Source: Armatimonadota bacterium (lineage in GTDB: Bacteria; Armatimonadota; Armatimonadia; Armatimonadales; Armatimonadaceae). Taken from it: a stretch of DNA of 12,558 nucleotides. The stretch covers positions 1 through 12,558 of the forward strand of contig JAYUUO010000127.1 of the NCBI GenBank assembly GCA_043754515.1. The letters run 5' to 3'. This document shows positions 6,452 through 12,558 of the stretch, in pieces. The notes below the pieces were generated by a model. The model was given only the letters and a program-made list of their open reading frames with translations. It was not told where the DNA came from and ran no database searches. Position 1 is the stretch's first letter, and each line of letters starts with the position of its first letter. Made by a program: the position numbers and the translations under genes.

Positions 6452-6904
6452 CTACTTGGCATCGCCGCCCCGCAACGCCTCGCGCAGCTCCATGAGGAGC
6501 ATACCCAGCATGTTCTTGCCAGTGCCGTCCTTGCCGCACCCCCAGTAGTAATCGTCGCCCGTCTTCTCGATCAACTCCTCGCTACCGGTCGCTTCGAGCA
6601 GTTCGCGTAGCTCCGCGTGCGTGTCGAACTTGGCGCGGAGGGCGCGGCGCATTGCGTCGTCCTTGACCTGATTCCAGTCGGCGCGGAGCGGGCGGCTCCG
6701 CTCCCGGCCCATATCGGCGGCTTTTTTCGGCGTACGCGCGTCCGCTACCGCCTCGAAGTCGGCGAGCGAGCCGACAAATTTCTGCGCCTGAAAGTAGTGT
6801 TCGCTGGTCTGCCAGTACCGCCCGTCGAGCGTGAAGCCGAACGGCGAGAAGTTAGAAAATACGCCGTACGGCTTCTCGGTCTGTAGGTAAAAGTAGATCG
6901 CCAT
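6452..6904 (-). CDS. ybiA: NADAR family protein (YbiA/RibX-like N-glycosidase, 150 aa)
   Basis: YGVFSNF, TSEHYFQAQKF, R-DW-QVKDDAM...AKF, L-ATG-EELIE, DYYWG-G-DG-GKNMLG-LLM-LRE. AAGGGA upstream of the ATG. Confidence 0.93.
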   Translation of the reverse strand: MAIYFYLQTEKPYGVFSNFSPFGFTLDGRYWQTSEHYFQAQKFVGSLADFEAVADARTPKKAADMGRERSRPLRADWNQVKDDAMRRALRAKFDTHAELRELLEATGSEELIEKTGDDYYWGCGKDGTGKNMLGMLLMELREALRGGDAK

Positions 6905-6927
6905 GGTACTGTGTGTCCCTTACACAT

Positions 6928-6936
6928 ACTATACCA
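6928..6936 (-). promoter_or_regulatory. Putative extended -10 promoter (TGgTATAGT) for the NADAR gene
   Basis: Minus strand reads cgTGGTATAGTatgtgtAAGGGAcacacagtaccATG, within the 44-bp gap. Confidence 0.55.
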
Positions 6937-6948
6937 CGAGTGGGAAGG

Positions 6949-9063
6949 TCATCTCCTCACCCGCGCCGCGTTCAGCGTAGCCATGCGCCGGGGCGGCAGG
7001 AGCGACTTGAGTTGTTCCGCCTCGGCCTCCGAAAGGGCGGCGGGTTCCATCCCGTTGAGCCAGCCCTCCAGCATATCCCGCCCCGCCTCCGTCGCGCGCC
7101 GCTTTTCTAGTAGTTGCGCGAGGATGGCTAACCCGATCGCGCGTCCCTCGTGCTCCGGGTATCCGAGTAGCCGCCCCACCGCCGTGAGCACCGCTTCGTC
7201 GGGCCGCCCGAGCAGGATCGCCATCGCGGGGCGTTGCATATCAAGCGGTTGTTTACTCATTAGGACGCCCTCTAGCCGCATCTCCTCCGCCTCGCCGATC
7301 GGGAACCGCTTCAGCGCGTCGGCGGCGCGCTGCCGCACGTTCGCCGCCCCGTCGCCGAGCAGGGTAATCAACAGGTTCGTGGATTCGATGGTTCTCGGGC
7401 GGAGCGCGGCGATCACCCCCACGAGTTGCCAGCGGCCGTTCGCGCTCATAATGGGCAGGAACGGATACAGGCGCGAGACAGGTTGCCCATCCAGCAGGCC
7501 AGGTAGCACGTCGGCGAGGTCGGATTGGGCGGCGGGGCGGCGCGTCCAGCCCCAGATGATCGGCTCTAGTTGCCGCTCTTTAGCGGGGAACCGCGGAAGG
7601 TTACGCGCCACTTGATCGAACCGGCCCAGGGGCGTCACGACCGGGGCGAACACGGGTTCGGGGATGGAGGCAACGGGGTTCAGATCTTTACCGCCCTTCG
7701 GGCCGTTCTCCCGCCTACTGACCTTGGCGACGAAGCCGCGCAACGCCCCCAGTAGTCCGCCTTCGCGCTCCTGCTCTTTGCGCTCCGCTTCCGAGGATGC
7801 CAGCGCGGGGGCGGGTGCCGTCACGCCCGCTTCGTCGGCGGATGCGGCGACGGACATGGCGGAGGTCCAATCGGCGACCCCGAACGCGAACGCGGCGACG
7901 CGGATGTCGGTGTCGCCTAGCGCGGTCAGGAGCGCGGGCTCCGCCTCGGGGAGGCGCGTCTGTGCCAGGAGATACGCCGCCGCGTACCGCCGCTCGGCGT
8001 CTACATCCCGGAGGAGGCGGGCGGCGATCCCGATTGCGGCGCGGACATTCAGGAACGCCGCGCACCACAGTGCGTAGTACACGGTTGTCGGCTCGGTGCC
8101 GTGGAAGATAGTCTTCTCCCGCGCTACGCTGTCCACGAGGAACTGCTCGACCCGCGCCAGGATTACATTACCGTCCGTGACGGCGAAGCCCTCTTCCTCG
8201 ACCCCGAACCAAGAAATCACGGTCAGGACGACGTCCGGGAAGCGGAGAAGGTTCTTCTCGCGGATGACGCCGAGTATCTTCAGGAACGCTTCGGGGTGTG
8301 CCTCGCCCGCGACTTCGAGAATCTGTCGGCGTACGCCCGCGTCCTCCCCCGACTCGGCGAGAAGCCGCGCCATCTCCCGCCAGCCTTCGGGGCGGGATGA
8401 CGACAGGAGCGCACGCACGACGTGCCGCCCCATCGCGCCGATCGGGTGTTCCCCGCGCGCCGACAGGATCAACACCTCCTGAATCGCATTGGATTCCGCC
8501 GGGTCGTTCCGGTCAATCGCGGTCGAAAGCACCGCGCCCAATCGGTCGCCGATCATCGCCCGACTCCCCTCGCTCCCCACGTAGGGCGCGTAGGTGGCGA
8601 ACCAAAGCGGGCCTTGCTCGCAGTACCGTCCGATGCCGAAGTGCGGCGAATCGGAGAGCAAACTCTGCAACTGATGAAGCCGCGCGGCGCGGCTGCCATC
8701 CGCGTTGTTCAGAAGGCGGAACGGCCGGGGGTTCCAGCCGACCTGGTGGAGTGGGGATACGTCCGGCGACCACCATCGCGCCATCGCGCCGCCCAGTCGC
8801 GGGAAGAACGCGCGGAACAACTGCTCGCGCTCCGGCACGCTGATCGAATCGCACAATGCCGCGGCCTCGGTCTGTGCCTCAACCCGGCCTGGTGACGTCC
8901 GATACGACGTGAAGAGGTTTCCCTCTAGGTCACACCCGAGGAGCGAGAAGGCGGCGGCGCGGGGCGCGGGTGGCAGACCACGCGCCCGTTCGACACGCAA
9001 CGAAAGCGGGTTCTCCGAAGCGGCATCGCGCAGGTGTTCCCGCGCTGTCTCTGGATCAAGCAT
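6949..9063 (-). CDS. Alpha-helical HEAT-repeat protein (704 aa) resembling the N-terminal part of large DUF5724/DUF4132-type proteins
   Basis: Long ORF with GGGAG 8 nt upstream. HEAT-like repeats: LLRDVDAERRYAAAYLL, ALGDTDIRVAAFA, LLGDGAANVRQRAADAL. The block GEHPIGAMGRHVVRALL...RPEGW...VRRQILE...EAHPEAF...NLLRF...WFG is recalled from DUF5724/DUF4132-type proteins (unverified). Confidence 0.75.
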   Translation of the reverse strand: MLDPETAREHLRDAASENPLSLRVERARGLPPAPRAAAFSLLGCDLEGNLFTSYRTSPGRVEAQTEAAALCDSISVPEREQLFRAFFPRLGGAMARWWSPDVSPLHQVGWNPRPFRLLNNADGSRAARLHQLQSLLSDSPHFGIGRYCEQGPLWFATYAPYVGSEGSRAMIGDRLGAVLSTAIDRNDPAESNAIQEVLILSARGEHPIGAMGRHVVRALLSSSRPEGWREMARLLAESGEDAGVRRQILEVAGEAHPEAFLKILGVIREKNLLRFPDVVLTVISWFGVEEEGFAVTDGNVILARVEQFLVDSVAREKTIFHGTEPTTVYYALWCAAFLNVRAAIGIAARLLRDVDAERRYAAAYLLAQTRLPEAEPALLTALGDTDIRVAAFAFGVADWTSAMSVAASADEAGVTAPAPALASSEAERKEQEREGGLLGALRGFVAKVSRRENGPKGGKDLNPVASIPEPVFAPVVTPLGRFDQVARNLPRFPAKERQLEPIIWGWTRRPAAQSDLADVLPGLLDGQPVSRLYPFLPIMSANGRWQLVGVIAALRPRTIESTNLLITLLGDGAANVRQRAADALKRFPIGEAEEMRLEGVLMSKQPLDMQRPAMAILLGRPDEAVLTAVGRLLGYPEHEGRAIGLAILAQLLEKRRATEAGRDMLEGWLNGMEPAALSEAEAEQLKSLLPPRRMATLNAARVRR

Positions 9064-9148
9064 GAATGAAACTCCCTGAATGCGGGAACCCCCCCGCCTT
9101 TTCTAAGTGCCCGCCGCACCCACTCGCGCTTCGGTGCTTCGTGTCGTT

Positions 9149-9197
9149 TATACCCACGGCTTCGGGTATATTACCGCTCATATACCCCGGTACCCAC
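9149..9197. promoter_or_regulatory. Array of TATACCC/GGGTATA half-sites in a divergent intergenic region (putative operator)
   Basis: TATACCC 9149-9155, GGGTATAT 9164-9171, ATATACCC 9180-9187, TACCCAC 9191-9197; two overlapping inverted repeats, each with an 8-bp spacer. Confidence 0.45.
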
Positions 9198-9295
9198 ATT
9201 ACTACCGCCTTTCATTGTCGGCAGATCCGCTGACAAAGTTCGCCCACCTCCTTTGGCGGATGCGCACGCGGTACACTGGGGGTGGAAGTGTCCTT

Positions 9296-10807
9296 ATGCC
9301 CGCTAACAACTCATGGAGCATCACGTTCGGCGCGTACGCGTTCGCCGTGGATCGTCGAGACCTGACGTACCGCCTGACCGAAACCGAGACGGGTACCGTC
9401 TGGGCCGACGGCGCGTCGCTCGGCACTATAGAGATTACCAACCGCGAGACCGGCGAGACGATTCCTTATCGGTTCGGCGAGATGAAACTGATCTCGCTGT
9501 CGGAAAAGTCCGGCGCGACCGGCAAGCGCATCCTGTTCGGGCTGGACGCGCCGGGCGGCATCCCGGTGGACGTCTACCTGACCTGCACGGAGCGCGAGAT
9601 ACAGGTCACGGTTGAGGCGAGCCGCGACACCCGAACGCACCGGGTCGGCGGATTCATCTTGTTACCCAGCTTGTGTTCCGTTCCAGACGACGGCACGTCC
9701 CATCTCGTTATCCCGTACCGGGAAGGGGCGATCCTGTTCGCGAAAGACCTTCCGGCGGAACCCGGCCCGTACCCGTTCCCGATCTGGGACGCGGAGAAGG
9801 GACTAACCATGCCGTTCGTGGGCGCGGTGCGCGTGAACGCGGGCGGTGCCACTCCAACCCGAACCGCGCTCGCCCTGCTGACCGATTCGGCGTACGGCGT
9901 CGCCGACCTGTTCCGCTCGCCACCTAGCATCACGCTCGATCTGCGCTACGAGCGCGACCCGGAGCGTCGGCGGCTAGACGTGCGCGTCGTCCCGCTCCCC
10001 GGCGGCGACCACGTCAGCGTCGCCCGCGCCTACCGCGACAAGATCATCGGGGACGGCGCGCACATCAGCCTGCGTAAGAAAATGCGCGACAAGCCGGACC
10101 TTGTCCACTGGCTCGACGGGGATCAAACGGCGCGTGACGCGAAGGTACTCATGCCCTACCTGGCGCAACAGACGAACCGGTGGCAAGCCATTGACGATGC
10201 CATGAAGGTGGCTAAAGACGTCCCCTCGAGCGAGGTAAGCATATCCACGTTGAGCGGCGATTGGGCGACCCCGCTTCTCGACATCTGGTTCTACCTCGTC
10301 TGGCAGCCGCTAGGCATCACCGTCCCCCTCCTGAGCGTCGTTCACCATGACACCGTGCCGATCTGCATCCCGATGGGAGCGGACGAGGAGTACTTTTTAC
10401 GCGCGTTGCTCTACATCGCGCCCCTTTTACCTTCCGACAAGGACGAGCGAATAGTAAGCATCCTGCGTCCTCTCCACAGGTTGTCTCTCGGCGCGTTTTT
10501 GACCGCGCACCGATTCCTGACGCCCGATTTCGCCGTGGAGGAAGCCGTCTATTCGGACGGGGCGCGGATCGTCATCAACCAGAGCATGACCGACGACTAC
10601 GTCGGCAACGATTTGCACCTGCCGCCGTTGGGGTTCTATGTGGCCCATAAAGAGATGGTCGCGCATCACGCGGTTCGCGTCGGCGGCGAGACGTTTGACG
10701 GGTCAGCGTGGCGAGTCAGGCGGGCGCGGGACGGGAAGCCGCTCGCGGATTCGGGGGACGTGCTGGTGGAGGAGTCCCCGGTTGTCGGCCTCGGAGTCGG
10801 AGCATGA
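9296..10807 (+). CDS. GH101/GH129-like glycoside hydrolase homologue with an apparently collapsed catalytic domain (about 503 aa)
   Basis: ATG 9296 is preferred over GTG 9107 because the upstream extension overlaps the regulatory region and a GGTACACT -10-like box lies at 9270-9277. Beta-rich N-terminus; LVIPYREG, LTMPFVG, VARAYR...ISLRKK...P, GDWATP, VPLLSVVHHD and LTAHRFLTPD...YSDG-RIVIN resemble GH129/GH101-like proteins as recalled. Confidence 0.65.
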   Translation: MPANNSWSITFGAYAFAVDRRDLTYRLTETETGTVWADGASLGTIEITNRETGETIPYRFGEMKLISLSEKSGATGKRILFGLDAPGGIPVDVYLTCTEREIQVTVEASRDTRTHRVGGFILLPSLCSVPDDGTSHLVIPYREGAILFAKDLPAEPGPYPFPIWDAEKGLTMPFVGAVRVNAGGATPTRTALALLTDSAYGVADLFRSPPSITLDLRYERDPERRRLDVRVVPLPGGDHVSVARAYRDKIIGDGAHISLRKKMRDKPDLVHWLDGDQTARDAKVLMPYLAQQTNRWQAIDDAMKVAKDVPSSEVSISTLSGDWATPLLDIWFYLVWQPLGITVPLLSVVHHDTVPICIPMGADEEYFLRALLYIAPLLPSDKDERIVSILRPLHRLSLGAFLTAHRFLTPDFAVEEAVYSDGARIVINQSMTDDYVGNDLHLPPLGFYVAHKEMVAHHAVRVGGETFDGSAWRVRRARDGKPLADSGDVLVEESPVVGLGVGA

Positions 10808-10814
10808 ACGGTCT

Positions 10815-10850
10815 GCGGTGAGTGCTCGGTGACCTCTGAGCACTCACCGC
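10815..10850. terminator. 13-bp perfect inverted repeat between convergent genes (bidirectional terminator or REP-like hairpin)
   Basis: GCGGTGAGTGCTC (10815-10827), 10-nt loop, GAGCACTCACCGC (10838-10850). No U-tract on either side. It contains the stop codon of the 10844-11215 gene. Confidence 0.65.
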
Positions 10851-11215
10851 GAACTACCCGGCTTCTTAAACAAGCGCGTGAACCAGTTCCCGCCCTCCGC
10901 GTCGCTCCCCGCACTCCTCTGGGTACTCCCGTCCGCCGATCCGGGCCTGTCGGCGGGGTTGCCACGATCACGCGGGGTGGGGGGCGGTTTCTTCGCCATC
11001 TCCTCGTGTGCCCGCGCCAGTGCCGACGCCTGCATCTCCGCCGTCGGCACCGGCTGATTCAGGGACAACCCGACGACGCGGGCGGTCCGCGCGAGCGAGG
11101 CGATCTCCGTCCGCTCGGCGTCGGTCAGCGCGGACAGCACCTCCGGCGGCGCGGGCTTGCCCTCGTAGAGCGCGTCGAGCGCGACGCGCATCGGTTCAGA
11201 GATCGAGATGCTCAT
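10844..11215 (-). CDS. Small protein, putative soluble anti-sigma factor (123 aa)
   Basis: Directly downstream of, and overlapping by 20 bp, the ECF sigma gene. Helical N-terminal ~75 aa (LDALYEG...EIASLARTAR...PVPTAEM), then a Pro/Gly/Ser-rich linker and C-terminal GGNWFTRLFKK. No transmembrane segment. Confidence 0.65.
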   Translation of the reverse strand: MSISISEPMRVALDALYEGKPAPPEVLSALTDAERTEIASLARTARVVGLSLNQPVPTAEMQASALARAHEEMAKKPPPTPRDRGNPADRPGSADGSTQRSAGSDAEGGNWFTRLFKKPGSSR

Positions 11216-11933
11216 ATCGTTTCTTTATCGCCTGTCCGGCGGGGTTAGTTTGCGTGTTGGTCACGGACGCCGACTGATTCGTGGCTTCGGCCTGGTGTCG
11301 CCACTCTTGCGCGGACGCCGAGTCGAGTGCCCCGGTGACCAGTGCCTTGCGCAGGTTGATCAGGGCGCGGTGTAGGAGCGACTTGATCGCCCCTTCCGTG
11401 CGGTTGAGGGCGATGGCGATTTCCTTGAGCGGTAGATCGCTCCCGAACCGTAGCAAGACGGCCTCCGCCTGATCGCCCGGTAGCGCGCCGACAGCGGCGC
11501 GTACCAGTGCCTGCGTCTCGGCGCGTTCGGCGAGCGCGTGCGGGTCGGGCGAGTCGGTGCCGGGGAGTGCTTCGAGGAGCGAGCGCACCTGATCCGCCGT
11601 GCCGCTATCGAACGACAGGAACGACACCCCCACCGTGCGCCGTGCCTGATCGTGTACAAGGTTCGTGGCGATGCGTGACAGCCACGGGAACAGCGACTCT
11701 CCTTGAAACCGGAACTGCGGCAGGTGCGCGATGGCCTTCACGAACGTTTCGGCGGCGATGTCCTCGGCGTCCTGCGTGTTGCGGCAACGGTACACGGCGA
11801 GACGATAAATACGAGCGTAGTACCGTTTATGAAGGAGCGTGAACGCCTCTCGATCTCCGGCGACCGTCCGCTCTACCAGAGCACGGTCGCTCGGTTCGAT
11901 AGTCTCCAGACGCGCTAGGAAATCGTCGGTCAT
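11196..11933 (-). CDS. ECF (group 4) sigma-70 factor (245 aa)
   Basis: Region 2: GDREAFTLLHKRYYARIY...DAEDIAAETFVKA...WLSRIATN. Region 4: LPGDQAEAVLLRF...LKEIAIALNRTEGAIKSLLHRALINLRK. C-terminal tail of about 45 aa. Confidence 0.95.
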   Translation of the reverse strand: MTDDFLARLETIEPSDRALVERTVAGDREAFTLLHKRYYARIYRLAVYRCRNTQDAEDIAAETFVKAIAHLPQFRFQGESLFPWLSRIATNLVHDQARRTVGVSFLSFDSGTADQVRSLLEALPGTDSPDPHALAERAETQALVRAAVGALPGDQAEAVLLRFGSDLPLKEIAIALNRTEGAIKSLLHRALINLRKALVTGALDSASAQEWRHQAEATNQSASVTNTQTNPAGQAIKKRYEHLDL

Positions 11934-11996
11934 TGTTATGGAAGACAGTTTATGCGTCGCGACGCGATTATCCTGCCCCGGCGCGGGGCGAAGCGG

Positions 11997-12002
11997 TATA
12001 AT
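11997..12002 (+). promoter_or_regulatory. Consensus -10 box (TATAAT) implying a leaderless transcript starting at ATG 12009
   Basis: gcggTATAATagaaacATG: a perfect -10 hexamer 6 nt before the ATG, with no Shine-Dalgarno. Confidence 0.7.
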
Positions 12003-12008
12003 AGAAAC

Positions 12009-12203
12009 ATGGAACCGAAGCCCCTGACCGAGACCAACCCCTACCTGCGCGACCCGGAAACCGTCCGCCGATTAATCCGGGAGGATGCGCGCCAGTCTTC
12101 GGTATTCGAGGGAGCACACGGTTTACCGCGTGCCGAACGTCAACCTGACGTGACCTCGCGCCGTCGTATCGCCTCCACGAAAAAGGCCGTCAACAAGTCA
12201 TAG
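12009..12203 (+). CDS. 64-aa protein with Fic-inhibitory motif SxxxEG; putative Fic antitoxin
   Basis: MEPKPLTETNPYLRDPETVRRLIREDARQSSVFEGAHG...; SSVFEG at 12096-12113 ends a probable helix and matches (S/T)xxxE(G/N). It is adjacent to fic and has its own TATAAT promoter. Start moved from 11952 to 12009. Confidence 0.72.
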   Translation: MEPKPLTETNPYLRDPETVRRLIREDARQSSVFEGAHGLPRAERQPDVTSRRRIASTKKAVNKS

Positions 12204-12558
12204 CGTTGACCGTATCCGCGAATCACGGCGCGTAAGTAATGTTGGCGTTCTAGGTTACTACCACGCCCCTCGAACCGATAAAGCGGTGGCGGGAAACCGG
12301 CCTGTTGCGCCATCAACCCCACGAGCCAGCGCGCGAGTCGCCCGTTCCCTTCGCGGAACGGGTGGATGAACGGCAGTTCGGCGTGAACCTCCGCCATCCG
12401 CTGTGCCACTGCGTCAACCGGCTCGCCAGGACAGGGCGTGCGTGCCCTCAGGAGGGTGGACTCAAACGATGCCATGTTCGCGTCAACGAGATGAGCCGGG
12501 GGCCAGGTGAACTCGCCCTTCGACAGCTCCACCGTGCGCCACTTCCCCGCCCAGCCGT
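12140..12558 (-). CDS. fic: Fic/DOC family protein (AMP-transferase), 5' end beyond the window
   Basis: Canonical catalytic loop HPFREGNGRLAR. The frame stays open to the window edge and reads GWAGKWRTVELSKGEFTW (Fic 'WAG-xR' and flap region), so the GTG at 12532 is internal. Confidence 0.93.
   Translation of the reverse strand, partial: GWAGKWRTVELSKGEFTWPPAHLVDANMASFESTLLRARTPCPGEPVDAVAQRMAEVHAELPFIHPFREGNGRLARWLVGLMAQQAGFPPPLYRFEGRGSNLERQHYLRAVIRGYGQRYDLLTAFFVEAIRRREVTSG

Follow-up and report, generated by a model that had tools for sequence, protein, structure and literature searches.

The DNA analysed here, a window of 12,558 bases that is the whole of contig C127, ends in what is, with high confidence, a FicTA toxin-antitoxin module of class I, arranged like FicY/AntY, in which a 64-amino-acid protein would inhibit a Fic toxin. 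The putative antitoxin, assigned to an NPYL subfamily, is encoded on the forward strand at 12009..12203, from an ATG at 12009 to a TAG at 12203, and converges on a reverse-strand fic gene that runs off the end of the contig. This assignment draws on the sequence, its homologues, a codon-position test and a predicted helix; the small gene is very probably a functional convergent Fic antitoxin, with binding and inhibition expected by analogy to characterized pairs. The layout is already known from one published pair, and the present work is therefore an extension and not the discovery of a new system. What it adds is the breadth of the clade, the NPYL subfamily and a leaderless promoter signal.

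The 64-amino-acid ORF is a real gene under protein-level selection. For its 31 codons outside the overlap with fic, comparison of 21 close loci gave a pS of 0.72 against a pN of 0.26, with identities of 0.70, 0.76 and 0.40 by codon position. In the same loci, whose selection by an HMM score of at least 55 bits favours the small-ORF frame, that frame contains no in-frame stop and each of the five other frames contains 10-29. The sequence-only reading had described a 64-amino-acid forward ORF with its motif at 12096-12113, outside the overlap, and these coordinates were borne out, the overlap being 12140-12203. Its expectation that gene callers would miss the ORF was mistaken, since the protein collection holds an 83-amino-acid version started at an upstream ATG (P0001). 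Neither the small protein nor its 68-member alignment matched a family in Pfam and NCBIfam, the Pfam VbhA and YhfG families included, and no second copy of the gene was found in the same genome. A weak feature-level lead connects the protein to YhfG (0.85). Searches with the folded model, whose tail is of low confidence (pLDDT 53-63), returned nothing above noise with either Foldseek (best E 5.6) or VIA-align (best Z 2.7; EcFicA at Z 2.1, rank 25).

The inhibitory motif, S30-S-V-F-E34-G35 (residues 30-35, 12096..12113 on the forward strand), matches the pattern (S/T)xxxE(G/N) and stands at the end of a helix predicted for residues 16-33, on a protein separate from Fic. A second conserved segment, LxxTNPYL (residues 6-13, 12024..12047, forward strand), lies near the N-terminus, where a short helix is predicted for residues 6-9; it probably makes an additional contact with Fic. 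A phmmer search with the small protein yielded 79 representatives at E <= 0.001, from which one 1640-amino-acid repeat protein (P0154) was removed and to which four earlier matches were added. Within the resulting set of 82, whose conservation figures are inflated because homologues were picked by similarity to the query, S30 is kept in 82, E34 in 81 and G35 in 81, and the N-terminal segment is likewise retained (L6 82, N10 81, Y12 72 and L13 67 of 82).

The convergent gene encodes a predicted class I-type Fic AMPylase, of which the window holds the 3' part (12140..12558, reverse strand; 138 codons of a 215-residue protein), identified by PF02661, by its identity to P0005 and by a fold match. 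The stop codon lies at 12140-12142 and the 5' part is beyond the contig end; no contig continuing fic was found in the same genome, but a 15,481-base contig of run X1 covers the stretch. The protein collection supplies a full-length Fic of 215 residues, P0005, which is 100% identical across the 138 residues of the window. As the sequence-only reading had it, fic converges on the small ORF with its active-site loop intact: the loop HPFREGNGRLAR (12329..12364, reverse strand; H142 and R153 in P0005) conforms to the canonical HxFx(D/E)GNGRxxR, which is present in 119 of the 120 Fic rows labelled convergent. The Fic model is confident (pLDDT 94.6), and its best fold match is the FIC domain of VbhT (3shg_A, E 7e-10), VbhT being also the best match by sequence. 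In its flap, VELSKGEFTW is similar to the motif V(D/E)IxKxxxxF(A/C) of FicT flaps (PMC8401265). The inhibitory motif (S/T)xxxE(G/N/T) was not found within P0005, and among close Fic homologues the pattern occurs in 3 of 120, at scattered positions. At least six further, distant Fic genes are present in the same genome (G000 contigs C23, C44, C81, C90, C116 and C276).

The association of the two genes holds in both directions. With the Fic alignment 160 loci were collected, the best 80 from each of two scans, and motif ORFs were counted by the pattern [ST]xxxE[GNT] in an open frame; the T was admitted after STAIET had been seen, and the controls used the identical pattern. Among the matches listed, a downstream opposite-strand motif ORF accompanies fic at 118 of 152 assessable loci, compared with control counts of 9 of 152 downstream on the same strand, and, upstream, 13 of 150 on the opposite and 23 of 150 on the same strand. 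In reciprocal fashion, a search with the small-protein alignment gave matches in 38 of 401 genomes of the window's phylum, and 26 of the 30 small-protein loci among the matches listed have a convergent fic. For the other four (L206, L207, L215 and L216), which are possible orphan antitoxins, no Fic match lies within about 1.5 kb. Upstream of fic, a motif ORF was present at 1 of 126 assessable in-clade loci vs 13 of 22 outgroup loci; the DNA 5' of the window's own fic lies off the contig, and its upstream region is judged from these relatives. To that extent, neither the Fic N-terminus nor an upstream gene appears to supply the inhibitory helix. The inhibitory-motif gene is thus downstream of fic and convergent, not upstream and co-directional as in the textbook VbhA, EcFicA and AntF arrangement, and the module is therefore not of the textbook operon subtype. 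The small protein would belong to an antitoxin family so far without a family model, and that family would provide partners for many Fic proteins to which a search confined to upstream genes would assign none.

The closest published counterpart is the FicY/AntY pair of Yersinia pseudotuberculosis, in which the motif of FicY (YPK_0608), S22TAIET27, is carried by the downstream convergent gene antY, AntY blocks AMPylation of ParE in vitro, and the authors propose independent promoters for the two genes while filing the convergent FicY as class I (PMC7479194). In five of 11 listed Fic loci of the genus Yersinia (L178-L182), a convergent ORF carries STAIET from residue 22 onwards and fic could start where its His would be residue 141; it is by these two published coordinates that they are equated with FicY/AntY. 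The window shares with this pair a class I Fic, a motif on a small downstream convergent gene and membership of the same Fic clade as the coordinate-matching loci. It differs in having SSVFEG where AntY has STAIET, in the extra LxxTNPYL segment near the N-terminus, and in an overlap of 64 nt against 4 nt in the Yersinia type. Identity between its Fic and the convergent Fics of Yersinia is no higher than 31-35%, and the target may therefore differ.

The sequence-only reading had suggested that the NPYL segment may mark a separate antitoxin family. In favour of this, direct HHalign comparison of the NPYL/SSxFEG group with AntY-like proteins gave a probability of 0.26%; against it, stepwise comparison through NPY-bearing STAIE groups joined the two ends at 99.0, 98.9 and 99.1%, and an HMM of the middle group reached at least 15 bits with all 20 window-type and all 36 AntY-like proteins. 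On these alignments the NPYL antitoxins appear to be a distant subfamily and not a separate invention. The AntY-like branch has NPY-bearing genes at its base, and the NPYL segment was therefore probably lost on the route to AntY. A mostly Bacteroidota branch (L039, L040, L054, L056, L068, L071 and others) has convergent antitoxins bearing SF(R/K)IEG. These barely match the NPY or AntY profiles and may represent an early-diverged or separately recruited partner.

An IQ-TREE analysis of 85 hand-picked Fic proteins, rooted on upstream-type pairs with a limited outgroup, placed 66 convergent rows and two rows with a co-directional downstream partner in one clade of 68 rows (support 98/94), to which the window Fic and Yersinia L178 and L179 belong. 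Its sister consists of four rows with upstream antitoxins (99/94), the joint branch being supported at 100/99, and the convergent clade was similarly recovered in two further analyses, one of 83 hand-picked rows; all trees left out 32 of 187 loci with a short or broken Fic. Named records in the clade include some from Verrucomicrobia, Nitrospira, Bacteroidota, Synechococcus, Shewanella, Serratia and Yersinia. Judged by these trees, the convergent layout marks one widespread, multi-phylum Fic clade, and the history is most simply read as one change of layout, from upstream to convergent. The two co-directional loci, L139 (downstream of 1168) and L150 (downstream of 2603), have a downstream small ORF with TQAREG on the same strand as fic and constitute a third layout; their Fic proteins have long branches and a degenerate loop (HPFREGNGRSAF/AAF) and are placed within the convergent clade.

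The module is patchily distributed, being present in 14 of 71 genomes of the host's class. No phage match was found for it, and the plasmid set gave four matching records, three of them chromosome-sized. Of the loci selected by Fic, 10 combine an intact antitoxin gene with a fic that is split or missing its 5' part, two have both genes broken, and one is altered in the antitoxin Glu alone; frameshifts in metagenome assemblies may be errors and possibly add to these counts. The single changed Glu, a Glu to Lys replacement at L076 (downstream of 3576), stands beside an apparently intact fic and may be an assembly error. Damage thus falls more often on fic than on the antitoxin, as is expected if the small gene guards against fic. 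At L171 (G062) fic is interrupted by a sequence that we take to be an IS1-type transposase, and the antitoxin there is intact.

A TATAAT hexamer at 11997..12002 on the forward strand lies 6 nt 5' of the antitoxin ATG, suggesting that the gene has its own promoter and a leaderless mRNA. The 6-nt spacing is kept, with variant hexamers, in both same-genus loci (L161 and L172). In gene sets that include kin and a few duplicates, a -10 box stands 5-7 nt before the start in 50 of 74 NPY-type genes (34 at exactly 6), compared with 1-8 at shifted control positions and never more than 10 over 500 shuffles, and a box at that spacing occurs in 18 of 56 other convergent genes. Within the window's phylum a leaderless-spaced box is found in only 8 of 30 listed loci, and several loci have a Shine-Dalgarno-like leader instead. 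A strict promoter scan of the window found no -35/-10 pair and no -35 box, and terminator-like matches were within chance (2 found vs 0.9 +/- 1.0 expected). An own promoter with a leaderless mRNA thus appears to be common in these genes, not universal, and is a reasonable supposition for the window. The one sequencing run considered as possible RNA is probably DNA and does not cover the ORF. A G+C-rich hairpin (about -12 kcal/mol) at 11972-11989 occupies the expected -35 region of the antitoxin promoter; it is not evident in the same-genus loci. The earlier suggestion that the inhibitory helix is provided by a separately transcribed convergent gene is well supported by the conservation of the small protein, the two-way linkage, the lack of an internal or upstream motif and the TATAAT 6 nt before the ATG.

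How such a pair would work can be proposed from its relatives. Like VbhA/VbhT of Bartonella and EcFicA(YhfG)/EcFicT, the window pair combines a class I fold and a canonical loop with a small partner bearing (S/T)xxxE(G/N) at a helix end, the difference being that the antitoxin genes of those pairs lie upstream in one operon (PMC3667792, PMC5033356). The antitoxin Glu of class I pairs stands in the way of productive ATP binding (PMC3667792). In Fic-1/AntF of Pseudomonas, likewise a class I pair, the antitoxin Ser and Glu touch the second Arg of the loop and make the complex a deAMPylase; all three residues are conserved in the window pair, which differs in that antF is upstream and co-transcribed (PMC13327609). 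By analogy, the 215-residue Fic would move AMP from ATP onto a target that, judging from relatives, is most likely a type II topoisomerase subunit, ParE and/or GyrB. The 64-residue protein would bind Fic through helix 16-33 and set Glu34 against R153, the second Arg of the loop, a contact that, on the VbhA and AntF model, would hold ATP in a non-productive pose. The antitoxin would be made from its own opposite-strand promoter, here probably as a leaderless mRNA, and two promoters, instead of a single operon, would therefore determine the toxin-to-antitoxin ratio. According to PMC3667792 and PMC13327609, it is an open question by what means a class I Fic toxin becomes free of its antitoxin. 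A clade with separate promoters would make transcriptional control of the ratio directly testable. The literature search covered papers open without subscription and, for PMC7479194, the main text; within that scope PMC7479194 alone describes a convergent Fic antitoxin, and no clade-wide survey, NPYL motif or leaderless antitoxin mRNA was found.

The tail-to-tail coding overlap of 64 nt (12140..12203, both strands) invites two other readings. One of them, in which the small ORF only shadows fic or a conserved DNA or RNA element and yields no functional protein, is almost certainly wrong. Its C-terminal IASxKK conservation (K58 in 72 and A55 in 66 of 82) does mirror fic, being the antisense reading of the FFxEAI codons, and for that reason is no evidence of function; the conserved core, however, lies outside the overlap, third codon positions vary, only this frame is free of stops, and AntY, apparently a homologue, is active as a purified protein (PMC7479194). 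The codon test outside the overlap largely refutes the shadow reading. It is also unlikely that the convergent transcript additionally controls fic as a type I-like antisense RNA through the 3' overlap. Coding ends do overlap at 97 of 109 convergent loci (by at least 20 nt in 70, with a median of 26 nt) and by 55-79 nt within the window's subclade, but the length ranges overall from none to 79 nt and is only 4 nt in the Yersinia type, and protein-level selection was found outside the overlap. Moreover, convergent genes often share short 3' overlaps, which counts against such a role.

A third reading, compatible with the preferred toxin-antitoxin module, has the pair acting mainly as a reversible switch, in which free Fic AMPylates, the complex removes AMP and two promoters set the state. 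This is a serious possibility that falls somewhat short of probable. DeAMPylation by Fic-1-AntF requires the antitoxin Glu (PMC13327609), the identical Ser/Glu pair and the second Arg are conserved at the window locus, and separate promoters would let the ratio be tuned; deAMPylation is known, however, for one upstream-type pair only, and the frequent decay of fic and the patchy occurrence within the class better fit a dispensable module than a housekeeping switch. More speculatively, one old inversion may have made a FicTA operon into a two-promoter device that spread across many phyla, the NPYL branch having a leaderless antitoxin mRNA in overlap with that of the toxin. Under stress that shifts convergent transcription or the translation of leaderless mRNAs, the pair would then flip between AMPylating topoisomerases and de-AMPylating them, and neither a protease nor operator autoregulation would be needed; taken as a whole, this scenario is unlikely.

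Beside the module, an ECF sigma factor gene and a downstream 123-amino-acid gene occupy 10844-11933 on the reverse strand, divergent from the antitoxin gene across a 75-nt gap, and the sigma gene adjoins the module in both same-genus loci as well (L161 and L172). Farther away, 6452-9063 (reverse strand) and 9107-10807 (forward strand) hold a NADAR-domain gene, a DUF5724/HEAT-repeat gene and a 566-amino-acid ORF with no Pfam match.
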